From NCBI GenBank assembly GCA_027045875.1, contig JALUAG010000052.1, forward strand, positions 55,054 to 119,053: DNA of 64,000 bases. Direction: 5' to 3'. The position numbers and the translations under genes are program-made. Numbering within the stretch: the first letter of the stretch is position 1; each line of letters starts with the position of its first letter. This document shows positions 1 through 51,779 of the stretch, one piece after another. The notes below the pieces were generated by a model. That model had not been told where the DNA came from and searched no databases. It saw nothing but the letters and a program-made list of their open reading frames with translations. This stretch comes from Alphaproteobacteria bacterium (lineage in GTDB: Bacteria > Pseudomonadota > Alphaproteobacteria > Geminicoccales > Geminicoccaceae).

Positions 1-3000
1 AGGCGAACGGTCGCCGCAACGGCCGCAGGGCGGCGGAGGAGCATCTGCTGCTGGTGCAGAACGAGATCGGCTACCGCAATCTCTGCCGGCTGCTGAGCGA
101 CGCCTACCTCGGGGCCGAGGAGGCGGCGCGGCCGCGGCTGTCCCTCGACGGCCTGCTGGCCGCTTCGGAGGGGCTGCTGCTGCTCACCGGCGGCGCCTTC
201 GGTCCGCTGGGCGGCCTCCTGCGCCGGCGCGAGAGGGAGGCCGCGCGCGAGCTGCTGCTGCGCCTGCGGGACGGATTCCCGGGCCGCCTCTACATCGAGC
301 TGCAGCGACACGGGCTCGAGGAGGAGGCGGCGACCGAGGAGACCTTCCTCGAATGGGCCTACGCCTTCGATCTGCCGCTGGTGGCGACCAACGACGTCCA
401 TTTCCTGCACGAGGAGATGTACGAGGCACAACAGGCGCTCCTGTGCATCGGCGCCGGCACCACCATGGACGATCCGGAGCGGCCGCGCCTCACCCCCGAA
501 CACCGCTTCAAGACGGCGGAGGAGATGGCGCGGCTGTTCGAGGACCTGCCGGAAGCCGTCGCCAACAGCCTCGTGATCGCCCGCCGCTGTGCCTATGCGG
601 CACCGAGCCGGCCGCCCATTCTCCCGCATTTCCCGACCGAGGAGGGGCGCGACGAGGCGGAGGAGCTCCGCATCCGGGCGCGGCAGGGGCTCGCGCGACG
701 GCTCGAAGCCCATGTGTTCGCGCCCGATGTAGACGAAGACGAACGCGAACGCGCCGCGCGCCCCTACCGGGAACGGCTCGAATACGAGCTCGACGTCATC
801 GTCCAGATGAAGTTCCCGGGCTACTTCCTGATCGTCGCCGACTTCATCCAGTGGGCCAAGGACCAGGGCATCCCGGTGGGGCCCGGGCGCGGCTCGGGTG
901 CCGGCTCGGTGGTCGCCTGGAGCCTCCGCATCACCGACCTCGATCCGCTGCGCTTCGGTCTCCTGTTCGAGCGCTTCCTCAACCCCGAGCGGGTGTCGAT
1001 GCCCGACTTCGACATCGATTTCTGCCAGGACCGCCGCGACGAGGTGATCCGCTACGTGCAGCGGAAGTACGGCGCCGACCGGGTGGCCCACATCATCACC
1101 TTCGGCAAGCTGCAGGCCCGCGCCGTGCTGCGGGACGTGGGCCGCGTGCTGGGTCTGCCCTTCGGCCTCGTCGACCGGATCTGCAAGCTGGTGCCGCACA
1201 ATCCGGCCAACCCACCCAGTCTCGACCAGGCGCTCGAGATGGAGCCGCGGCTGCGCGAGTATCGCGACCGCGATCCCAACGTCGCCCGCATGATCGACAT
1301 CGCGCGTAGGCTCGAGGGCCTGCCGCGCCACGCCTCCACCCACGCCGCCGGGGTGGTGATCGGCGATCGCCCGCTGACCGAGCTCGTGCCCCTCTACCGC
1401 GATCCCCGCTCCGACATGCCGGTCACCCAGTTCGACATGAAGGACGTGGAGAAGGCGGGGCTGGTCAAGTTCGACTTCCTCGGTCTCACCACCCTCACCA
1501 TGCTGCGGCTGGCCCAGGATCTCGTGCGGGCGCGCGGCGTGCCGCTCGATCTCGAGAAGCTGGGGCTCGACGATCCGGCAACTTACGCCCTCCTCGGCCG
1601 GGCCGAGACGGCCGGCGTGTTCCAGCTGGAATCGAGCGGCATGCGGGATGCGCTCAAGAAGCTTCGGCCCGACTGCTTCGAAGACATCATCGCCATGGTG
1701 TCCCTCTACCGGCCGGGGCCGATGGACAACATCCCGCGCTACATCAACGTCAAGCACGGCATCGAGCAGGCGAGCTATCTCCATCCCGCGCTGGCGCCCA
1801 TCCTCGAGGAGACCAACGGCGTCATCATCTACCAGGAACAGGTGATGGAGATCGCCAAGCAGCTCGCCGGCTACAGCCTGGGCGGCGCCGATCTGCTCCG
1901 CCGTGCCATGGGCAAGAAGATCAAGGCCGAGATGGACGCCCAGCGGGAGGTCTTCGTGCGCGGTGCCGGTGAGCGGGGGATCCCCGAGGATCGGGCGGCG
2001 GCGATCTTCGAGCAGGTGGCCAAGTTCGCCTCCTACGGCTTCAACAAGAGCCATGCCGCGGCCTACGCGCTGCTCGCCTACCAGACCGCCTATCTCAAGG
2101 CCAACCACCCGGTCGAGTTCTACGCCGCGGTGCTGACGATGGAAATGGCCAACCAGGACAAGCTCGCCGCCCATCGCCAGGAGATGCGCCGCCGGGGCAT
2201 CCCCCTCTATCCGCCGGACGTCAACGCCTCCGCCGAGCGCTTCCTCGTGGAGGAGGGGGTCGAGGGCGCGGGCGTGCGCTACGCGCTGGCCGCCCTCAAG
2301 GGGGTGGGTGTGCAGGCGGTGCGCGCCATCGTCGCCGAGCGCGAGCGCGGCGGGCCGTTCGCCGATCTCTTCGATCTCGCCGCTCGGGTGGGGACGCGGA
2401 TCCTCAACCGGCGTCTCCTCGAGGCGCTGGTGCGCGCGGGGGCCTTCGACCGTCTGGAGCCCAACCGCCGGCGGCTGTTCGAGGGCATCGAGGCGGCGCT
2501 GCGCTACGCCCAGGCCTGGGCGGCGTGCGAGGAGGATCAGCAGGCGAGCCTGTTCGGCGGCGAGGTGATCCGCCCCCGGCGGCCCGAGCTCCCCGAGTGC
2601 GACGACTGGAGCCAGCTCGAACGCCTGCGCGAGGAGGCGAGCGTGGTCGGCTTCTATCTCTCGGCCCATCCCCTCGACGCCTATGCGGGCGAGCTCGAAC
2701 GGCTGGAGGTGGTCTCCGCCGCCGCCCTGTTCGACGATCCGGCGGCCTTCGAGGGGCGGCGGGTGCGTCTCGCCGGGGTGGTGATCGGCAAGCAGGAGCG
2801 CACGGGGGGCCGCAGTCGCTACGCCTTCGTCCAGCTTTCGGACGCCAGCGCCCAGTTCGAGGTGACGGTGTTCGCGGATCTGCTCGCCCGCAGTCGCGAG
2901 CTTCTGGAGGGACAGACGCCGCTGCTGCTGGAGGCGGACGCGCGGGTCGACGGTGGCGAGGTCAAGCTCGTGGCGCAGCGGATCGCACCGCTCGAACTGC

Positions 3001-3245
3001 GGGCCGCTGCCGGCGGCGCCCTGGAGCTGCGGGTGACCGAACCCGCGACCCTGGCGGCGCTCGCCCGCATCGTGGAGCGCGGGGCCGGGAGCGGCCTGCG
3101 GCTGCGTCTCCTGCTGGTGACCGCCGGCGGCGAGGAGGTGCTGGTGGAGCTGCCCGCGGATTGGGTCCTGCCCTGGCCGAACCGCCCGGACGTCGAGCGG
3201 CTGCCGGGCGTCGCCGCCGTGCGCGAGGCGCCGGCGCTGCATTGA
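1..3245 (+). CDS. dnaE: DNA polymerase III alpha subunit, 5' end outside window
   Basis: The reading frame is open to the window edge. The translation has Pol III alpha hallmarks (GRGSGAGS, PDFDIDF catalytic aspartates, KFDFLGL, FQLES, a C-terminal OB region). The N-terminal PHP part is missing. Confidence 0.95.
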   Translation, partial: ANGRRNGRRAAEEHLLLVQNEIGYRNLCRLLSDAYLGAEEAARPRLSLDGLLAASEGLLLLTGGAFGPLGGLLRRREREAARELLLRLRDGFPGRLYIELQRHGLEEEAATEETFLEWAYAFDLPLVATNDVHFLHEEMYEAQQALLCIGAGTTMDDPERPRLTPEHRFKTAEEMARLFEDLPEAVANSLVIARRCAYAAPSRPPILPHFPTEEGRDEAEELRIRARQGLARRLEAHVFAPDVDEDERERAARPYRERLEYELDVIVQMKFPGYFLIVADFIQWAKDQGIPVGPGRGSGAGSVVAWSLRITDLDPLRFGLLFERFLNPERVSMPDFDIDFCQDRRDEVIRYVQRKYGADRVAHIITFGKLQARAVLRDVGRVLGLPFGLVDRICKLVPHNPANPPSLDQALEMEPRLREYRDRDPNVARMIDIARRLEGLPRHASTHAAGVVIGDRPLTELVPLYRDPRSDMPVTQFDMKDVEKAGLVKFDFLGLTTLTMLRLAQDLVRARGVPLDLEKLGLDDPATYALLGRAETAGVFQLESSGMRDALKKLRPDCFEDIIAMVSLYRPGPMDNIPRYINVKHGIEQASYLHPALAPILEETNGVIIYQEQVMEIAKQLAGYSLGGADLLRRAMGKKIKAEMDAQREVFVRGAGERGIPEDRAAAIFEQVAKFASYGFNKSHAAAYALLAYQTAYLKANHPVEFYAAVLTMEMANQDKLAAHRQEMRRRGIPLYPPDVNASAERFLVEEGVEGAGVRYALAALKGVGVQAVRAIVAERERGGPFADLFDLAARVGTRILNRRLLEALVRAGAFDRLEPNRRRLFEGIEAALRYAQAWAACEEDQQASLFGGEVIRPRRPELPECDDWSQLERLREEASVVGFYLSAHPLDAYAGELERLEVVSAAALFDDPAAFEGRRVRLAGVVIGKQERTGGRSRYAFVQLSDASAQFEVTVFADLLARSRELLEGQTPLLLEADARVDGGEVKLVAQRIAPLELRAAAGGALELRVTEPATLAALARIVERGAGSGLRLRLLLVTAGGEEVLVELPADWVLPWPNRPDVERLPGVAAVREAPALH

Positions 3246-22222: not shown

Positions 22223-22765
22223 ATGACCGAAGAACGATATCCGGGGGAGCGCCGGGGACTGACCCTGTTTCTCGAGGATCTCGCGCCGGTCGTGGCATCG
22301 GAGCTGGGCGACAGCTGCCTGCTCCATCACGCCATCCGGGCGGCACTGCGTTCGGGCAGCCTGCGGCGCCTGCGGCATGCCCGGCGCCTCTTCAACCACC
22401 TTCCGCGCGGGGTGCGTCAGCGGCTGTCCGAGGCGCTCCTCCGGAAAACGCCGCCGTTGCCCAGCCGGGAAGCGCTGCTCGCCGATTACGCCAGCCGTCC
22501 ACCGGCGCCGGTGATCGCCTTCGAGGCCAGCGAGCGCCAGGAAACCGAGCCGGTGCCGCGCGCCGAGCTCCAGCACGAACTCGCCTCCGCCGCCGATCTG
22601 CGGGTGACCATCCGCCCCGGCACGCTGCCGGCGGCGGCCGCCGAGCGGCTGCGGGCCATCGCCGATCTGATCGAGCGGGATCGGCGGTTACTGTCGCCAC
22701 GCTTCTGGCGCCAGCGGCAGCTCGTGGAGCTGGCCGACAACGACCAGGAGGCGGACTGCCGCTGA
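22223..22765 (+). CDS. Hypothetical protein
   Basis: 180-aa ORF with protein-like composition and a GGACGGAG RBS. No family recognised. Confidence 0.5.
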   Translation: MTEERYPGERRGLTLFLEDLAPVVASELGDSCLLHHAIRAALRSGSLRRLRHARRLFNHLPRGVRQRLSEALLRKTPPLPSREALLADYASRPPAPVIAFEASERQETEPVPRAELQHELASAADLRVTIRPGTLPAAAAERLRAIADLIERDRRLLSPRFWRQRQLVELADNDQEADCR

Positions 22766-22817: not shown

Positions 22818-23387
22818 TCATTCCTGAGGCTGGGCCTCGTCCTCCCGAGGGGCCTTCTTCTGCTGTTCGGCCTGGGCACGCGCCACCGCCTCGTCCAGCT
22901 CGGTCTGGGAGCAGAGTCCCAGTAGCACCGGATCACGGGGGCGAATCTCGGCGCTCTTCCAGTGGGTCCGGTCGCGCACCGCCTGCACCGTGTTCTTGGT
23001 GGTGCCCAGGAGACGGCAGATCTGCTGATCGCTGAGCTCGGGGTGGTGGCGCAGCAGCCAGGCGATGGCGTCCGGCCGGTCCTGGCGCTTCGACAGCGGC
23101 GTGTAGCGCGGCTCCTTGCGCTTGGGCAGCTTGATCTCGTCCGCCACCGACTTGGCCATGCGCAGCCGCGCCTCGGGGTCCTTCTGGCAGCGCTCGATCT
23201 CCTCGCGCGTGAGGATGCCGGCACCGATCGGATCGAGGCCACGGATACCCGTCGCCACCTCGCCGTCGGCGATGGCCTTCACCTCGAGCGGATGCAGCCC
23301 GCAGAACTCGGCGATCTGTTCGAACGTCAGGCTCGTATTGTCCACCAGCCACACGGCGGTGGCCTTCGGCATGAGGGGTTTCGACAT
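22818..23387 (-). CDS. DUF1013-family protein (TrcR-like cell-cycle transcriptional regulator)
   Basis: 189 aa. MPKATAVWLVDNTSLTFEQIAEFCGLHPLEVKAIADGEVA...LTREEI is characteristic of the alphaproteobacterial DUF1013 family. Confidence 0.85.
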   Translation of the reverse strand: MSKPLMPKATAVWLVDNTSLTFEQIAEFCGLHPLEVKAIADGEVATGIRGLDPIGAGILTREEIERCQKDPEARLRMAKSVADEIKLPKRKEPRYTPLSKRQDRPDAIAWLLRHHPELSDQQICRLLGTTKNTVQAVRDRTHWKSAEIRPRDPVLLGLCSQTELDEAVARAQAEQQKKAPREDEAQPQE

Positions 23388-45566: not shown

Positions 45567-48500
45567 TCAGAGGCCGGCGGCGGAGCCGTCGGCGACGTCG
45601 CCGGCCTGGAGGGAGGCGAGGCGGGTGCGCAGCCGTTCGACGAGGGCGCTCGTGTCCGCCGTTACCTGTCGTGGATCGCCGGTGATGGCGAGCGGCGTGG
45701 TCATCAGCTCGAACAGGGTCTCCACGGTCAGCGCCGGATTTCTCTCGGCGACCAGCCGGGCGATCCGGGCCACCGCCTCCCGCGATCCGCGCCGCCAGAG
45801 GGCGGTGCCCACCCGCAGCGCTCGCAAGGCGTCCTCCTCGCTCAGCAGCTTGCGCCCGGCGAACTGGTTCACGATGGGTTGGGCCAGCGCGGCCAACCGC
45901 TCCCAATCGCGGGCGAGCCAGGCGGCGTCCAGACGAACGGTGAACGCGCGCGGATCCTCGATGCCCTCGAGGGCGCTCAGCGCCCCCCAGGGATTCCCGC
46001 GGGCGAGTTCGACGCGAGCCGCGAGCAGCCGCCCTTCCACACGGTCCCTCCCGACACCGGTGGCGGCGAGCTGGAGGGCCAGTTTCCCCGCCTCGTCGAA
46101 AGCCCCCCGTGCGAGGTCGGCGCGCGCCTGCAGCCGGGCGAAGGCCCGCCGCAGAGGGCCGGTCGCGACCACCGGCAGCCGTTCTTCGAGGAGCACCGCG
46201 GCGACTTCGGGAAGGCCCGCGTCGAGCAGGCCGCGGGCGAGGTCGAGGGTGATGCGATCACCCGCCTCGCCCGGCGGCAGCAGCTCCACGTAGCGGCGAT
46301 AGAGCTCGAGACGCACGAACAGGGGCAGCGGCGGATCGGCCCCGGGATCGAGGGCGGTGGCCAGAGCTACGGCCATTTCCGCGGGCAGGCCGACACTCGG
46401 CGCGGCGTCGGGATAGCGCCCCAGCAGCTCCCGCCAGACCGCGAGTGCCTGCGGGATGCGGCCCAGCGTGCGTTCGAGACGACCGAGCTCCCGCAGCATG
46501 GTGGGCTCCCAGGGGTGTCCGCGCCAGAAGGCGCGCTGGCGCAGGAAGGCATCGCGGGCCGCCGCCTCGTCGATGCGCCCGGCCTGGCGATCGAGATTGA
46601 CGAGCGCGAACTCCGCCTTGGTGGCGGTGATCCAGGGAGCTTCCTCGACGAGACGGGCGAGGAGCCTGCGCGCTTCGGTACCGGCGCCATCGCGGTCGAG
46701 GGTCAGGGCCTCGATGAAGCGCAGTTCGTCGCGCTGGGCGGCGGTCAGCGGCAGCTGGTCGAGGCGGTCGAGCCAGGTGAAGGCGCTCGCCGCATCGCCG
46801 TTCTGGGCGGCGATCATGACCGCCATCAGTCCCAGGCGGAAACGCAGCGCCGGGGGATAGGATTCGAGAATGCCCCGCGAACGTTCGAGCTCCTCGGCGG
46901 CCAGATCCCAGCTGTTCTCGCGGGCCGCCAGCACCGCTCGCCAGAGCGCCATCTCGCGGTCGTCCTCGAGCAGCGGATTGCGCAGATGCCGAGCCGCCGC
47001 GGCGTTCCGTCCCAGGAGCAGCGAGGAGGCGCCGGCCAGCGCCGCCCGCCGCTTCGAGAGCTCGGGATCCTCCTCGATCACCGGCGAGCCGGTGGTGGCG
47101 AGGAGCTGGGCCAGCGCCTCGGCGCCAAGGGCGTCCGCGAGATAGAGACGGGCGAGCTGGAGACGCAGCTCCTGTCGGGCCGGATCCTTCCGCATGGCCA
47201 GTTCGGCCACGAGGGCGCGGCGCAGCCGCCCCACCCCCTCGAGCAGCTCGGGGGCGAGTTCGGCGAGGCCCAGCGTCGTCCGCCAGGAAGGCAGGATCTG
47301 CTGCGGCTCCACCGCCTCGCTCCCTTCCGCGGCGGTCTCCGGGGGAACGGCGTCCGCTCCCGTCTCCTGCGCGGCCGTTTCTTCCCCCGGCGGTCGCGGC
47401 GGCTCGGCGGGGGGAGCGCTGGAGACACCGGGCTCGGTGGGCGGCACGGCGACATGTTCGGGGGGCGCGGCCGAAAGCGCCGGGGGTTTCTCCCCTTCGC
47501 GGGCGGATGCCACCATGGCCGGTGTCTGCGCCGCGGCGGCCGGCTCCCCCTCTCCCGCGGTCTCCGTGACCGGCGCGCGGGCGGCGGCATCCGGCGGCGC
47601 CGGTGGTCGGGCCGCCGGCTCCTCGGGTGGGAAGGCTCCGGGTTCGAGGCGCAGCCCGCCCGGACGGGTGATGGCGATGCCACCCGTCACCGCCCGCGCG
47701 CGAACCTCGGGCAGCGGCGATCGCCAGGCCACTCCCTGGGCGCTTTCGAGGAGCGAGAGGTCGACCAGCCGTCTCGGTGCCGGCAATCCGGTGCCTGGGC
47801 GATCGTAGGTGAGAACGTGGATCTCCTCGCCGGCCACGCTGTCGCGAAAGCGCAGGTGGCGACGGGCACCGGGGAACAGCAGGCGGCCCGCGGCCGCATC
47901 CGCCCGCACGGCGACCTCGGCCGCCGGCCGCTCGCCGAATCTCAGCATCCACACCGTCCCCTCGCGGCGCATGGCGACCGCCACCGGCCGTCTGAGGTCG
48001 ATGCGCAGCACCGTCGCCTGCTGGTGGGGCTCCTGGCGCAGACCGCGGATCAGAGCGCCGGCATGGAAGGCGATCTTCCTCTTCTCGGCCAGCAGGGAGC
48101 CGGCGCGGGCGTCGAAGACGAGCCAGAGCCGGCCGGCCCGCAGGAAGGCGGCGGCGCCGACCTCGAACGGCCAGAGAAAGCGCAGGACGACGGTCTCACC
48201 TTCACGGGCCGCCCGGATCTCCAGGCTCTCGGTCACCGCAGGAACGGCCGCGGCATCGGCCGCCGCCACGGCCCCGGGCTCCGTATCGCCGATCTCCGGC
48301 GACGGGACCTCTCCTGCCGCCGAGGCCGGGGCGGCGTCCGCCGCTTCGGAACCGGCCGTCCCGACATCGCCTGCCGTCGCGCCGCCCGGTCCGTCCGCGG
48401 CTTCGGCGACGGGGAGGGCGTCCGCCGAACGCCCCGCGCCGGTGCGGGGCGGGCCGGCGGCCTCCTCGCCCTTGGTCTCCCCTCCTTCCGCGGCCGCCGC

Positions 48501-49220
48501 TCCCGAAACCGGAGGCGTGTCCGCTTCGTTCTGCGGGGCGGCCTTTCGCAGGAGATCGAGCACCAGCCGGTCGGGTGGCAGCCGCATGGTTCGCGCGTCG
48601 TAGCCGTCGGCGAGGCGCAGTCGCAGTCCGCTCCCTTCCGCGGCTTCCACCGCCGCCAGCCCGTCGAGCCGCCCGAGGCGGGCGATCAGGTTCCGGCCCA
48701 GCGGGCGGGCGAAGCGCAGCGCGAGCCGGTCGCCGTCGCGTTCCAGCTCCGCCGCCGCCGCCCGTTCGCCCTCGAAGACGAGGCGGAGATAGTCCGGATG
48801 GTTGCCGATGCGGACGCCGATGGAGGCCAGCGCCTCGTCGTTGCGGCGGAACGCCACCTCGAGGCCGCCGGCGTCGTCCTTCGTGATCGTCACTTCGGTT
48901 CCCGACCGGAGCAGGAAGAAGACGCGGCCGGAGTCGGCGTCGGCGGAAACGCCGGCCACCAGCGCCCGGAGACGCGTTTCGAGGTCGCCGAGTTCGGGAA
49001 GCGGTCGGGCACCGAAGTCCAGCACCAGACGGCCGCCGCGCACGGCCGCCGTCACCGGCTGTCCGGCGAACGGGGCCACGCGCAGAGCGGCTCCCCCGTC
49101 ACGTGGCCGGAAGGAGACGGCGGGAGCGGCGCCGTCCGGGTCCGATCGGGCCGGCGCCGGAGCGGGCCCGAGAGCGGGCCCCAGAAGGAGGAGCAGCAGC
49201 AGGAGACGGCCGCCCTTCAT
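45567..49220 (-). CDS. Large secreted protein: N-terminal beta-rich (AMIN-like?) modules, Ala/Pro/Glu linkers, C-terminal ~570-aa TPR-like helical repeat region
   Basis: 1217 aa with a clear signal peptide (MKGGRLLLLLLLLGPALGPAPAPA|RS). Repeated strand-like segments (GRLVLDFGARP, DRLALRFARP, DRLVLDLL, GRLWLVFDA), two low-complexity linkers, then Leu/Ala/Arg-rich helical repeats. The ATG overlaps the stop of the upstream MotB-like gene (ATGA). Confidence 0.75.
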   Translation of the reverse strand: MKGGRLLLLLLLLGPALGPAPAPARSDPDGAAPAVSFRPRDGGAALRVAPFAGQPVTAAVRGGRLVLDFGARPLPELGDLETRLRALVAGVSADADSGRVFFLLRSGTEVTITKDDAGGLEVAFRRNDEALASIGVRIGNHPDYLRLVFEGERAAAAELERDGDRLALRFARPLGRNLIARLGRLDGLAAVEAAEGSGLRLRLADGYDARTMRLPPDRLVLDLLRKAAPQNEADTPPVSGAAAAEGGETKGEEAAGPPRTGAGRSADALPVAEAADGPGGATAGDVGTAGSEAADAAPASAAGEVPSPEIGDTEPGAVAAADAAAVPAVTESLEIRAAREGETVVLRFLWPFEVGAAAFLRAGRLWLVFDARAGSLLAEKRKIAFHAGALIRGLRQEPHQQATVLRIDLRRPVAVAMRREGTVWMLRFGERPAAEVAVRADAAAGRLLFPGARRHLRFRDSVAGEEIHVLTYDRPGTGLPAPRRLVDLSLLESAQGVAWRSPLPEVRARAVTGGIAITRPGGLRLEPGAFPPEEPAARPPAPPDAAARAPVTETAGEGEPAAAAQTPAMVASAREGEKPPALSAAPPEHVAVPPTEPGVSSAPPAEPPRPPGEETAAQETGADAVPPETAAEGSEAVEPQQILPSWRTTLGLAELAPELLEGVGRLRRALVAELAMRKDPARQELRLQLARLYLADALGAEALAQLLATTGSPVIEEDPELSKRRAALAGASSLLLGRNAAAARHLRNPLLEDDREMALWRAVLAARENSWDLAAEELERSRGILESYPPALRFRLGLMAVMIAAQNGDAASAFTWLDRLDQLPLTAAQRDELRFIEALTLDRDGAGTEARRLLARLVEEAPWITATKAEFALVNLDRQAGRIDEAAARDAFLRQRAFWRGHPWEPTMLRELGRLERTLGRIPQALAVWRELLGRYPDAAPSVGLPAEMAVALATALDPGADPPLPLFVRLELYRRYVELLPPGEAGDRITLDLARGLLDAGLPEVAAVLLEERLPVVATGPLRRAFARLQARADLARGAFDEAGKLALQLAATGVGRDRVEGRLLAARVELARGNPWGALSALEGIEDPRAFTVRLDAAWLARDWERLAALAQPIVNQFAGRKLLSEEDALRALRVGTALWRRGSREAVARIARLVAERNPALTVETLFELMTTPLAITGDPRQVTADTSALVERLRTRLASLQAGDVADGSAAGL

Positions 49221-49813
49221 GGCACCAGCACCAGGGCGGCGCGCTCGCCGTCACCGACGGCGAGGATGCGGTCCGGGGGATGCCCCATCCAGCGGCCGGC
49301 GGCGTCGCCGAGACGACGGAGCAGGCGCAGCCGTTCGACGAGCGCGAGCTCCGACGGGACCGGTACCTCGAGCCGGGTCTCCACGAGACCGGACAGTACC
49401 GGCAGCAGGATCGCTCGCAGCCGGGAGGGGGTGGACGTGGTGTCGGACGAGCGGTCGGTCAACAGGCGACGGTCGAAGCGCAGGATCACCGAACGCCCGG
49501 CGACCGCCGCCCGCAGGCCGTAGGGACGTCCGACGGCCGCCAGCCGCTGATCCAGCACCCGGGCGAGATAGGCCGCCCTGCCCGCCTCCGGTTCTGGATC
49601 GGGATCGGTGGCGCTGTGCCCGATGCGGGAGGTTGCCCGCGGCGGCTCGGTGACGGTGGGGGTCCGTCCCTGCCAGACGGTGGTCAGCGCCTGCCAGCGC
49701 TCGACGTCCAGGCGGCTCATGGCGAAAGTCAGCACGAAGAAAGCCAGCAGCAGGGCGGCCAGATCGGCGAAGGTGAGGAGCCACGGGGCGGTGCCGGGAC
49801 CGTCGCGGTTCAT
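49217..49813 (-). CDS. MotB-plug-like membrane protein with degenerate OmpA-like C-terminal domain (channel Asp retained)
   Basis: 198 aa. WLLTFADLAALLLAFFVLTFAMS parallels E. coli MotB [20 protein letters not shown], including the Asp. The periplasmic part lacks the GHTD...N..LS..RA peptidoglycan-binding signature. Confidence 0.7.
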   Translation of the reverse strand: MNRDGPGTAPWLLTFADLAALLLAFFVLTFAMSRLDVERWQALTTVWQGRTPTVTEPPRATSRIGHSATDPDPEPEAGRAAYLARVLDQRLAAVGRPYGLRAAVAGRSVILRFDRRLLTDRSSDTTSTPSRLRAILLPVLSGLVETRLEVPVPSELALVERLRLLRRLGDAAGRWMGHPPDRILAVGDGERAALVLVP

Positions 49814-50592
49814 CGGATCGGCTCCGGGATGCGCTCACGGAGGGTGAAGGACCAGCGGTCGCCGTCACTGCCGAAAAGGCCGTAGATCACCGCCTCGCCA
49901 TCGGCGCCCAGACGGTCGAGAAGAGCCAGCACCCGCTGCAGCCGCCGTGCCAGCTCCGTGACCTCGGGCCCGGTGGGCCGGGGCGCTGCGATCTCGAGGA
50001 CCCAGCCGTTCGGATCGCGGGTGACGGCGGCCATGCGCCCGAACAGCAGCCAGCGGGCACGGGGGATCTCGCCGCTCGCGTCGAACAGCCGTGCCGCGGC
50101 GAGCTCGACACGGCCCACCACTCCGGCCCGTTCCGCCTCCGCGGTCAACGGTGGTCCGAAGCGGAGATCGCGCAGTGCGTCCTCCCCGGAGCCCCGGGCG
50201 AGCGTGCCGCCCTCCACCGGCGGTGCGGGTCTCTCCGCGACCGCCGTCGCCGGTGCCGAGAACTGGCGTTCGAGCGATCGCAGAACCCGCTTCGCGCGTT
50301 CCCGATCAAACTCGGAGAGGGCGATCAGCAGCACGAAGAAGCCCGCCAGCAGCAGGAACACGGAGAGAAAGAGGGTGGATGTGGTGGCCGATCCGGGCAT
50401 CCCGGACCGCGTCGGCGAACTCACGACAACGCCGGGAACGGCGAGGGGGTCGTGCGATGTGCCCCCATCTTCCGTTTTCCCGTCGGCCGACGGCCACCCC
50501 GGGGAGACGGGAAACGGCGGTGCGGTCGGGGACGTTGCCGTGCTGCTGTCCGGTGCGGAGCCGATGGACGGAGGGACGGCCTCGGACATCAC
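49810..50592 (-). CDS. MotB-like single-pass membrane protein lacking the channel Asp, with a Ser/Pro/Thr-rich cytoplasmic N-terminus
   Basis: 260 aa. The TM segment TLFLSVFLLLAGFFVLLIALSEF has the MotB-type AxFFVLL pattern, but Ser-Val replaces Ala-Asp. The C-terminal domain again looks like a degenerate OmpA-like fold. GTG/ATG start at 50592/50589, 9 nt after the cheZ stop. Confidence 0.6.
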   Translation of the reverse strand: MMSEAVPPSIGSAPDSSTATSPTAPPFPVSPGWPSADGKTEDGGTSHDPLAVPGVVVSSPTRSGMPGSATTSTLFLSVFLLLAGFFVLLIALSEFDRERAKRVLRSLERQFSAPATAVAERPAPPVEGGTLARGSGEDALRDLRFGPPLTAEAERAGVVGRVELAAARLFDASGEIPRARWLLFGRMAAVTRDPNGWVLEIAAPRPTGPEVTELARRLQRVLALLDRLGADGEAVIYGLFGSDGDRWSFTLRERIPEPIR

Positions 50593-50601
50593 CGGGAGGC
50601 G

Positions 50602-51255
50602 TCAACCGAACAGGGCGTCGATTTCGTCCTGGGTGGTGCCGGTTCCGGGTGGTGCCGGGCCATTGAGGAGATCCTCGTCGGTGAGCGGTTTCTTGGGTGT
50701 CTGCTCGGGTTCCTCGGCGGGAGGATCGCCGAGCGCGGTGAGCAGCGCGTCGATGCGCGTCTCCACCGCTTCCAGGGTATCGACCACCTTCTTGATGCGC
50801 TGGCCCGTGATGTCGTGGAAGTTGCAGGCCTCGTAGATGCGGGTGACGCATTCGAGCAGCTTTTCCGACGCCTCGTCCGGCATGCTCTCGGCCAGCTTCT
50901 CGAGCTCCTCGCAGGTATCGAGGATGGTGCCCGTCGCTTCCTCGAGATGCGAGGCGATGGCGCCCAGCTCGCCGTTGGCGAGCGGCAGATGATGGGAGCG
51001 GATGTCGTGCGGACGCACCGATTCGACATCGACCTTGGCCCGTTCGATGACGCCCGCCAGGGTCTCGAGCTCCTCGGCAATCCGCCGTTCCTTCGCCGAA
51101 ACCTGGCTCTGCACCCGTTCGAGGACCGCCTGGATGATCTTCACCACCTCGGCGAAGAGCTGTCCGCCGTGGGAGATGTCGCCGACGTTGTCCAGACGCC
51201 GGTCGATGAACTGTTCGAGACTTTCCTGCCGGTCTCGGTCCCGCTGGCTCGTCAC
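50602..51255 (-). CDS. cheZ: CheZ-family CheY-P phosphatase
   Basis: 217 aa. ACNFHDITGQRIKKV matches the CheZ catalytic D-x-TGQ motif (E. coli FQDLTGQVIKR). The C-terminal QDEIDALFG resembles the CheY-binding tail QDQVDDLLDSLGF. GTG start with a GGAGA RBS. Confidence 0.8.
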   Translation of the reverse strand: MTSQRDRDRQESLEQFIDRRLDNVGDISHGGQLFAEVVKIIQAVLERVQSQVSAKERRIAEELETLAGVIERAKVDVESVRPHDIRSHHLPLANGELGAIASHLEEATGTILDTCEELEKLAESMPDEASEKLLECVTRIYEACNFHDITGQRIKKVVDTLEAVETRIDALLTALGDPPAEEPEQTPKKPLTDEDLLNGPAPPGTGTTQDEIDALFG

Positions 51256-51270
51256 GATTCGTCTCCGCTG

Positions 51271-51657
51271 TCAGGTACCACCGAGAACCATGGCGATCTT
51301 TTTGTGCAGGGTCTCGGCGTTGAACGGCTTGACGATGTAGTTGTTCACGCCCGCCTGCTTGGCGGCGATCACGTTCTCCGTCTTGCTCTCGGCGGTGATC
51401 ATGATGAACGGGATGTCCTTCAGTTTGGGATCGGCGCGCACCGCCTTCAGGAGCTCGAGCCCGGTCATCGGCTGCATGTTCCAGTCCGAGATCACCAGCC
51501 CGTAAGGCTTCTCGCGCAGCTTGGCGAGCGCCGCCGACCCGTCCGTCGCCTCGTCGACGTTGGTGAACTCGAGCTGGCGCAGCAGATTGCGGATGATCCG
51601 CAACATCGTCTTGTAATCGTCGACGATCAGGATGGGCATCTTCTTGTCGACTGACAT
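51271..51657 (-). CDS. cheY: Single-domain chemotaxis response regulator
   Basis: 128 aa. ILIVDD (D12/D13), VISDWNMP (D57), MITAE (T87), VKPF (K109). Confidence 0.95.
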   Translation of the reverse strand: MSVDKKMPILIVDDYKTMLRIIRNLLRQLEFTNVDEATDGSAALAKLREKPYGLVISDWNMQPMTGLELLKAVRADPKLKDIPFIMITAESKTENVIAAKQAGVNNYIVKPFNAETLHKKIAMVLGGT

Positions 51658-51763
51658 CGAGGCAGGCTCCAGGCAGGCTGTAGTTGGACGGGCTTCACGA
51701 CCGCTCCGAACGCGGCGCCGGTCGCCGCGCTTTCGGGCCGGCGCCCATCCTATGTGCTGCCTC

Positions 51764-51779
51764 TTAAGGTTTGGTTAAC
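51764..51779 (-). promoter_or_regulatory. Perfect CtrA box (TTAA-N7-TTAAC) upstream of the cheY operon
   Basis: TTAAGGTTTGGTTAAC lies 107-122 nt upstream of the cheY ATG. On the coding strand it is followed by GCACATAGGAT, a possible -10. Confidence 0.55.

Follow-up and report, generated by a model that had tools for sequence, protein, structure and literature searches.

Why should the genes of a chemotaxis response regulator and its phosphatase head a tightly packed set that continues with two MotB-like proteins and a periplasmic protein of more than a thousand residues, when the channel partner MotA is not encoded beside them? The question is raised by a 64,000-nucleotide (64 kb) stretch of contig JALUAG010000052.1 (hereafter the window), from an alphaproteobacterium of the Geminicoccaceae, in which cheY and cheZ are followed by ORF3 (ORF, open reading frame), ORF4 and the gene of a very large protein, here called the giant (Table 1). 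Our analysis indicates that the five genes are very probably the stator and switch-control half of the alphaproteobacterial polar-flagellum motor operon, relocated in the clade to which the window belongs. Taken as a whole, the system belongs to a known kind, the motor-accessory operon of alphaproteobacteria with its E-ring and spoke scaffold. Three of its features are new: an enlarged scaffold of four beta domains, whose translation is coupled to that of MotB; a twin of MotB, present at 41 of 59 loci that carry the giant, in which the channel aspartate is missing; and, in the window clade, a detached module with a CtrA box whose MotB has no detectable anchor.

The placement of the set is provided by gene order in relatives. 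Distant homologues of the giant end a flagellar operon with the order flgH-flgA-flgG-flgF and, divergently, fliL-fliM-DUF6468-(MgtE_N protein)-[cheY-cheZ]-giant, where the DUF6468 protein is PflI of Caulobacter and the MgtE_N protein is MotE (PMC10954123, PMC7885107, PMC11870540, PMC13023049). We surveyed 80 fliM loci of named and uncultured Rhodospirillales-type genomes, found by a genome-collection scan with a FliM alignment and covering Magnetospirillum, Thalassospira, Terasakiella, Azospirillum, Niveispirillum, Sneathiella, Pelagibius, Stellaceae, Defluviicoccus and Acetobacteraceae metagenome-assembled genomes (MAGs); genes were called with our own hidden Markov model (HMM) searches of six-frame ORFs, and flanks were fetched up to 10 kb. 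The giant lies downstream of fliL-fliM-pflI-motE on the same strand at 59 of the 80 loci. At 14 the contig ends too early to judge, and at seven there is no giant despite at least 9 kb of room downstream; in these the module is absent or located elsewhere. ORF3 and then ORF4 stand directly upstream of the giant in 41/59 loci, 17 of which have the full cheY-cheZ-ORF3-ORF4-giant order of the window, whereas 12 loci, for example in Magnetospirillum, have cheY-cheZ-giant without ORF3 and ORF4. ORF3 and ORF4 were never found singly among the 59 giant-bearing loci, and the 4-nucleotide (nt) overlaps at the ORF3/ORF4/giant junctions repeat across lineages. Conservation of the cheY-cheZ linkage in relatives had been set beforehand as a test, and both genes were found directly upstream in the same operon at 29/59 loci.

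As these genes stand within flagellar operons in relatives, the window's set corresponds to a conserved part, the 3′ half, of a flagellar-motor operon. Two proposals of the initial annotation, that the genes form an undescribed CheY-controlled envelope machine and that they belong to no named system, are not borne out by these flagellar contexts. The missing motA, which it had pointed out, is no peculiarity of the window either: phmmer found motA at 0/80 fliM loci within the fetched flanks. The order in most Rhodospirillales-type genomes would be fliL-fliM-pflI-motE-cheY-cheZ-ORF3-motB-giant; in the window clade, the 3′ half appears to have been excised and inserted anew, with pgm on one side and an opp-type ABC transporter on the other. 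A candidate identity of ORF3 and ORF4 as diverged PflI and MotE was rejected; BLASTP gave no similarity, and both pairs co-occur in the same operons.

Some loci depart from the common arrangement. Module variants were noted at ten loci: L044, L046, L047, L049, L050 and L054, from Azospirillum and Niveispirillum, and L055, L056, L057 and L059. Azospirillum-type genomes have cheZ-ORF3-motB-giant without cheY in front, and in A. brasilense the orphan proteins CheY6 and CheY7 have their genes at other sites (PMC8100600). A. agricola, A. rugosum and one Azospirillum MAG have the module shifted away from motE by ~1.8–6 kb, and in A. lipoferum, A. picis and Azospirillum sp. B2RO_4, which are among the seven giant-less loci, no module was seen up to 10 kb from fliM. 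The giant gene of L025 (14801–18304) is broken into five ORF fragments and the motB gene of L080 (13638–14356) into two; these splits are either assembly or frameshift errors or genuine pseudogenes in those MAGs.

The E-ring proteins MotE and FlgY and the spoke proteins MotK, FssB, MotC and PflA have been recognised as widespread motor parts only recently, in work on Caulobacter, Cereibacter, Sinorhizobium, Campylobacter, Helicobacter and Borrelia. MotE, FlgY and FlbB form the E-ring, and PflA, MotC, MotK and CC_2058 are spokes; MotC, MotK, CC_2058 and FlcA/B are regarded as homologues of PflA/PflB, reaching as spokes to the stators (PMC11870540, PMC13023049). Such spoke and scaffold proteins are treated as homologous and as acting on MotB (PMC10954123, PMC7885107, PMC11870540, PMC13023049). 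We file the giant, by operon position, architecture and weak profile matches, as the enlarged Rhodospirillales form of this MotK/FssB/PflA-type family. Rhodospirillales-type bacteria, including Azospirillum, Thalassospira and Terasakiella, would thus have their own version of the motor part, with a spoke-type protein about twice as long that has four beta domains and would be co-transcribed and translationally coupled with MotB.

The architecture of the giant was read from AlphaFold2 models, which were built from a 30-sequence alignment in two parts (residues 1–560 and 621–1217). The N-terminus, MKGGRLLLLLLLLGPALGPAPAPA, is a hydrophobic leader that by eye resembles a Sec signal peptide. The model of residues 1–560 (pLDDT, predicted local distance difference test, 80) has four beta-rich domains at 35–126, 134–225, 329–430 and 439–520, and the linkers 230–325, predicted to be disordered, and ~525–655 are rich in proline and alanine. 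Conservation within the family is highest in a block in residues 329–520 (W366, F369, D370, D460, G464, G496). The second model, with a mean pLDDT of 88.5, is all-helical. Pfam gave sub-threshold AMIN and TPR matches only, and no curated NCBIfam model matched above its cut-off. The family profile matched PilQ 4av2 at E 2.9e-4 over profile positions 182–370 of 1,151, and it also matched TPR proteins in the PDB sequence set. Foldseek, run with the 560-residue N-terminal model, placed PilQ 3jc8_Qa at the top (E 3.3e-3) and gave AmiC 4bin a probability of 0.93 over 115 columns; nothing reached E 0.001, and small heat-shock-type sandwiches scored alike. The models thus suggest a modest AMIN-type match of the N-terminal beta-sandwiches, carried by at least one of the four domains. 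The solenoid retrieved generic long TPR solenoids, only two of them bacterial among the 50 matches listed, and the higher-ranked bacterial match was 9hmf_K, a chain of the periplasmic motor scaffold of C. jejuni (E 2.7e-6, rank 5). The proposal that the set includes an accessory periplasmic stator scaffold akin to PflA/PflB fits the giant, given its operon position and its predicted beta-sandwich and TPR solenoid.

The closest parallels are found in MotK of Cereibacter sphaeroides Fla2 and FssB (CC_2058) of Caulobacter crescentus. In MotK an AMIN-like domain at the N-terminus is joined by TPRs; the protein interacts with MotE and MotB2, and cells that lose it have a paralysed flagellum (PMC10954123). 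FssB mutants likewise have paralysed flagella (PMC7885107); mutants of either protein build flagella that do not turn (PMC10954123, PMC7885107). Both are exported proteins that combine an AMIN-like beta-sandwich at the N-terminus, Pro-rich linkers that are disordered and TPRs, an architecture that the models predict for the giant, and their genes stand at the end of a CtrA-controlled fliL-(fliM)-pflI-motE(-motA) operon, a position shared by the giant's relatives. The giant differs from MotK in its length (1217 vs 652 residues), its four predicted beta domains instead of one and its solenoid of ~33 predicted helices. Often the genes ahead of its own are cheY-cheZ and two of MotB type, not motA or motE, and in the window it is detached from fliL-motE.

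The junction of ORF4 and the giant, which are adjacent and translationally coupled, resembles motB-motC of Sinorhizobium meliloti. MotB is there directly followed by the periplasmic TPR protein MotC, co-expression of the two is required for motility, and MotE stabilises MotC (PMC10954123, PMC13023049). Unlike the giant, MotC has no AMIN domain, and no aspartate-less MotB twin is described there. MotC is also much shorter than the giant, and the search of NCBIfam with the giant gave no match to a MotC-named model at E ≤ 1. PflA of Campylobacter and Helicobacter has an AMIN-like sandwich, a flexible loop and 17 TPR repeats and makes up the spokes that run from the E-ring of FlgY to the stators; its authors compared the ‘PflA-AMIN’ domain with PilQ 3JC8 (PMC11870540), the same structure that is the top match of the giant's N-terminal model, while the giant's solenoid matches 9hmf_K. 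By contrast with the pair PflA/PflB, the giant is one chain, and no sequence-level similarity to these proteins or to FlcA/FlcB of Borrelia was detected. From these characterised relatives we infer that the giant would be exported to the periplasm, where its AMIN-type beta-sandwiches would grip peptidoglycan, as deduced from MotK, MotC, FssB and PflA, and its TPR solenoid would bridge the MotE ring and the B subunits; such a scaffold would recruit stators and keep them open.

The giant family is large. With a threshold of E ≤ 1e-30, an exhaustive profile search gave 3,850 representatives at 50% identity; the 150 matches listed of these all exceed 930 bits and are near-full-length. An apparent rarity (30 giant and 10 ORF4 matches) was an artefact, arising because of the word filter of the word-indexed search and the divergence of the window clade. 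Shorter members also exist. In the Rhodobacterales order fliL-pflI-motE-motA-X (L008), X is P0052, a protein of 692 amino acids (aa) that matches the giant-family profile at E 8e-10. A 408-kb plasmid of Erythrobacter aureus (L092, NZ_CP031358.1, 377393–396412) carries a full flagellar cluster, with fliL-fliM-DUF6468-motE among its genes; further downstream lies the gene of a family member of 548 aa (234 bits), which RefSeq names ‘hypothetical protein’. The family thus appears to extend, in a short form, to the Sphingomonadales. A search of the plasmid collection for Azospirillum chromids gave no MotB match, and its giant matches were from Sphingomonadales only. Public annotation of the family, judged from the one Erythrobacter record inspected and from NCBIfam, is thin, and a named family with a profile model would improve the annotation of several thousand proteins.

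The two MotB-like proteins differ in what they have kept. Sequence evidence identifies ORF4 as the stator protein MotB. Its transmembrane (TM) helix at ~11–31 carries the channel aspartate, Asp17, within WLLTFADLAALLLAFFVL, and Pfam finds MotB_plug (PF13677) at residues 7–44 with 44.1 bits against a cut-off of 24; helix, Asp17 and plug are invariant across the clade. The orthologues outside the clade, ~240 aa long, align as a MotB TM helix with the aspartate, a plug and an OmpA-type domain, with Pfam scores of 44–60 bits for MotB_plug and 19–48 bits for OmpA as well as NCBIfam MotB-family matches. A regular expression found the channel Asp motif in 39/41 ORF4 orthologues; in one of the remaining two the Asp aligns, and in the other the gene is split. 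The initial annotation had called ORF4 a MotB-plug protein: the plug is confirmed, but ORF4 is the MotB orthologue, with MotB_plug and OmpA both present in other lineages. Thus ORF4 is like canonical MotB and PomB in its N-terminal TM helix with channel Asp and plug and in the OmpA-type domain of its orthologues. Its Asp17 would act as the proton acceptor of a stator B subunit within a pentamer of MotA encoded elsewhere, a function assigned from the homology.

The window ORF4 is unlike canonical MotB in that no peptidoglycan-binding core is detectable and motA is unlinked. There was no Pfam OmpA match at E ≤ 1, the C-terminal domain is shortened, and the HMM of the non-clade orthologues aligns with residues 7–131 only, ending before the peptidoglycan-binding OmpA core; the GHTD and NWELSxxRA motifs do not appear in the alignment. 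The weakening of the MotB peptidoglycan site appears to be recurrent in this group, because the strict motif is also missing in 16/41 ORF4 orthologues whose genes are still in the flagellar operon, those of Azospirillum included.

ORF3 is, by sequence, a MotB paralogue without channel aspartate or peptidoglycan motif. It has a TM helix at ~73–93 (LFLSLYLLLLAFFILL), followed by a segment that resembles the plug and by a periplasmic domain of a diverged OmpA-like type; by analogy with MotB, the ~72 N-terminal residues would be cytoplasmic. The Pfam MotB_plug score is below the cut-off for the window protein (15 bits) and 24–27 bits for two orthologues. Family against family, hhalign aligned ORF3 with ORF4/MotB at a probability of 98.65% (E 4.7e-16, 189 columns), in an alignment that starts at the TM helix and takes in the whole periplasmic domain, and the best match of the ORF3 profile among PDB sequences was MotB 6ysf (3.6e-10), with C. 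jejuni MotB, PomB and OmpA domains also matched. The HMM of non-clade ORF3 proteins gave window ORF3 53 bits (residues 67–246) and window ORF4 12 bits, while the HMM of non-clade MotB proteins gave 20 and 66 bits, respectively, and these reciprocal scores establish a clean orthology of each. ORF3 is thus homologous to canonical MotB and PomB over its whole length; unlike them, it has neither the Asp nor the peptidoglycan motif. Ser77 occupies the channel-Asp position in window ORF3, and where this position could be located among the 41 orthologues it is S in 19, G in 11 and A in 4, and never Asp. The motif N[WF]xLSxxR[AS] was found in 0/41, and Pfam OmpA was found neither in window ORF3 (E ≤ 1) nor in the five orthologues scanned (E ≤ 0.1). 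The helix remains MotB-like, with F85, F86, L89 and S93 nearly invariant. Our literature search found no paper on an aspartate-less MotB paralogue.

What such a twin might do beside MotB is the more delicate part of the question. Through the ATGA overlap ORF3 would be co-produced with MotB, most likely as a heterodimeric B subunit or, failing that, as an adaptor that docks MotB to the scaffold. That ORF3 pairs with MotB as a heterodimer inside the MotA pentamer we put forward tentatively, at somewhat short of an even chance. The conserved MotB-like helix points to specific intramembrane packing, and the strict pairing and translational coupling with MotB fit a 1:1 assembly; whenever MotB sits in this operon, the aspartate-less twin accompanies it. 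These same observations speak against a slightly more doubtful reading, in which ORF3 is a MotB-derived accessory that stands beside the stator, like FliL, MotF or FssA, and assists in opening the plug of MotB or ties the scaffold to the membrane, leaving ORF4 an ordinary homodimer. Such a role would suit the absence of aspartate and peptidoglycan motif in all 41 orthologues. It is also suggested by Caulobacter FssA, a small protein, exported or in the membrane, that shows no recognisable domain; its loss is suppressed by MotB plug mutations (PMC7885107). Moreover, in 18/59 lineages the operon has the giant without ORF3-ORF4, and a scaffold can thus be encoded with no twin linked to it.

If the twin does sit in the stator, it would be a natural experiment on the number of aspartates that a MotA5B2 motor needs. 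A true heterodimer would mean a naturally asymmetric flagellar stator in a large Rhodospirillales-type group and would offer nature's own test of models that let the two aspartates of MotB alternate.

The second departure from the common plan is the detachment of the module itself. The window shares with L006, L093 and L094 the order galU-ugd-pgm, then cheY-cheZ-ORF3-ORF4-giant and then opp-type permeases, with the overlaps kept, and these four lineages make up the window clade. Direct reading of the junctions bears out the tight minus-strand packing of the five genes, the two ATGA overlaps and the perfect CtrA box that had been reported. The cheY-cheZ gap is 15 nt and the cheZ stop lies 9 nt from the GTG of ORF3; the ORF3/ORF4 junction is an ATGA overlap at 49810–49813 and the ORF4/giant junction another at 49217–49220. 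The ORF3 start is ambiguous, as the longest ORF begins at GTG 50592, while public gene calls choose the adjacent ATG at 50589, which gives 259 aa. The CtrA-type box TTAACCAAACCTTAA is identical in the four lineages and is the sole TTAA-N7-TTAA of each locus, in a spacer that has otherwise diverged; the window has two copies of TTAA-N7-TTAA, where 100 shuffles give an expectation of 0. The first gene of the module is preceded by a perfect CtrA box in six further loci, and such boxes are typical of alphaproteobacterial flagellar genes (PMC10954123). We presume that the box is a CtrA-dependent promoter element, and the detached module would most likely be under a CtrA-dependent promoter of its own. 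The initial annotation had overlooked this detachment from fliLM, together with the lost channel aspartate of ORF3 and the undetectable peptidoglycan-binding core of the clade MotB.

Two further stretches of the intergenic region are kept in the same four lineages, ~25 nt directly 5′ of the cheY start (ACAGCCTGCCTGGAGCCTGCCTCG) and a short motif, CTAGGATGG, ~10 nt downstream of the CtrA box. These may be a leader or ribosome-binding region and a promoter −10 region. A promoter and terminator scan gave no signal exceeding chance.

All five genes are under purifying selection, with ratios of nonsynonymous to synonymous substitution rates (dN/dS) of 0.02–0.49 within the clade (Table 1). ORF3, ORF4 and the giant share 50–68% identity among the four lineages and CheY 95–98%. 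The three envelope proteins are thus fast-evolving yet constrained (dN/dS < 1), and they are therefore not pseudogenes. A steep gradient of constraint runs through this one operon (45567–51657), from the strongly kept CheY to the fast-evolving ORF3, MotB and giant.

Since the clade MotB has no detectable peptidoglycan-binding core, stator anchoring has presumably passed from MotB to the scaffold in the window clade. If the protein truly cannot bind peptidoglycan, the clade would be a natural case of anchoring delegated to a scaffold. The full joint model, an obligate ORF3-MotB heterodimer in the MotA pentamer with a single proton-accepting aspartate and, in the clade, a stator fixed by the AMIN-TPR giant, is unlikely to hold in every part.

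We consider it improbable that the detached module is instead a decaying or redundant second copy, with working genes at fliLM or at another site and a degenerate MotB in the course of disappearing. The missing OmpA core of ORF4 would suit such a history, as would the evolution of ORF3, ORF4 and the giant at about 10 times the rate of cheY (0.32–0.49 vs 0.02–0.06). The nearest relative of the giant outside the clade, in L010 (31.5% identity), is at a fliM locus without ORF3-ORF4, which leaves room for a genome with two copies. However, the frames are intact, the dN/dS values are well under 1, and the overlaps, the Asp17 helix and the CtrA box are invariant in the four lineages despite 40–50% protein divergence. 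The MotB peptidoglycan motif is also weakened in 16/41 orthologues inside the flagellar operon.

Several points nevertheless weigh against the placement of the five genes in a flagellar motor. The window has no flagellar structural gene or motA, so that motility, a MotA partner or a second MotB is assumed. The lack of a detectable OmpA core in window MotB, taken with dN/dS values of 0.3–0.5 for ORF3, ORF4 and the giant, could reflect relaxed function. The link to the studied MotK and FssB proteins is indirect, made by position, architecture and weak profile matches; the Foldseek AMIN match of the model is weak (best E 3e-3), and 9hmf_K is one of many generic TPR matches. Finally, the protein–protein contacts and the binding of CtrA are predictions.

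The absence of other motility genes from the window, an element of the initial annotation, is confirmed within the parts tested, which comprised the 64 kb apart from ~17.7–19.2 kb, 26.5–28.8 kb and ORFs below 100 aa. In phmmer searches of the six-frame ORFs with 22 query proteins from related loci, no MotA or flagellar structural protein was found; there was no cheA or cheW nearby and no other che gene. Pfam analysis of 30 further ORFs of the window, with the Pfam list of an identical public contig (~39–60 kb), gave solely housekeeping, metabolic and transport genes. This absence, along with the sugar-nucleotide neighbours galU-ugd-pgm, would be expected of a new kind of CheY-controlled, non-flagellar envelope machine. 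We regard such a machine as very improbable, because each component has orthologues in the flagellar operons of dozens of genomes, the neighbours are functionally diverse with no coupling to the module, and the CtrA box is of the kind typical of flagellar genes in alphaproteobacteria (PMC10954123).

Of the two signalling proteins, CheY matches PF00072 at 2e-30 and the NCBIfam CheY model NF007901 with 157 bits, which is under the equivalog cut-off of 189, and the residues D13, D14, D58, T88, Y107 and K110 are all present. CheZ matches PF04344 (1e-10, 42 bits vs a cut-off of 30.7), with D148-x3-Q152 inside the motif HDITGQ and the C-terminal peptide DEIDALFG; we take D148 and Q152 to correspond to E. 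coli D143 and Q147 and the peptide to be the CheY-binding tail. Thus the pair resembles E. coli CheY and CheZ in having all phospho-acceptor and switch residues in CheY and, as judged from sequence, the catalytic D-x3-Q and a CheY-binding-type C-terminal peptide in CheZ; unlike the E. coli-type pair, it is encoded in a flagellar motor operon and not in a che cluster. From these conserved residues, phosphorylated CheY (CheY-P) would bind FliM and change or stop rotation, and CheZ would dephosphorylate CheY-P.

Zorya anti-phage systems also hold MotB_plug proteins without an adjacent flagellar motA, but a ZorB-like identity of the MotB-like proteins is effectively refuted, as PADLOC has no model that fits any of ORF3, ORF4 and the giant, no ZorA/MotA-like gene is nearby and the flagellar synteny is strong.

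Table 1 Features of the window, with dN/dS within the window clade
Feature	Coordinates	Strand	Description or basis	dN/dS
cheY	51271–51657	minus	128 aa, single-domain response regulator, E. coli CheY type	0.02–0.06
cheZ	50602–51255	minus	217 aa, predicted CheY-P phosphatase	0.15–0.19
ORF3 (‘motB-prime’)	49810–50592	minus	260 aa, bitopic MotB paralogue	0.38–0.49
ORF4	49217–49813	minus	198 aa, MotB orthologue	0.32–0.41
Giant periplasmic scaffold protein	45567–49220	minus	1217 aa, MotK/FssB/MotC/PflA type	0.36–0.39
Giant residues 35–225, two tandem beta-sandwich domains	48546–49118	minus	AlphaFold2, pLDDT ~90 or higher	
Giant residues 329–520, two further beta-rich domains	47661–48236	minus	AlphaFold2 secondary structure and pLDDT	
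Giant residues 657–1205, TPR-type alpha-solenoid, ~33 helices	45606–47255	minus	AlphaFold2, Foldseek	
Perfect CtrA-type box TTAACCAAACCTTAA	51764–51778		106 nt upstream of cheY ATG	
Region with conserved stretch ACAGCCTGCCTGGAGCCTGCCTCG	51658–51700		~25 nt directly 5′ of cheY start	
Second perfect CtrA-type box TTAAGATCCTGTTAA	22187–22201		21 nt upstream of 180-aa ORF	
180-aa ORF	22223–22765	plus	No Pfam match	
TrcR cell-cycle regulator gene	22818–23387	minus	PF06242, 216 bits	
DnaE-type DNA polymerase III alpha gene	54–3245		PHP, NTPase, finger and HHH_6 domains	

Elsewhere in the window, the second CtrA-type box precedes the 180-aa ORF, which is adjoined by the TrcR gene. Box and TrcR gene, as read from the sequence, would mark the source as an alphaproteobacterium with CtrA-type cell-cycle control. 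The source has ~70% G+C, and the DnaE-type gene extends beyond the window's left end.

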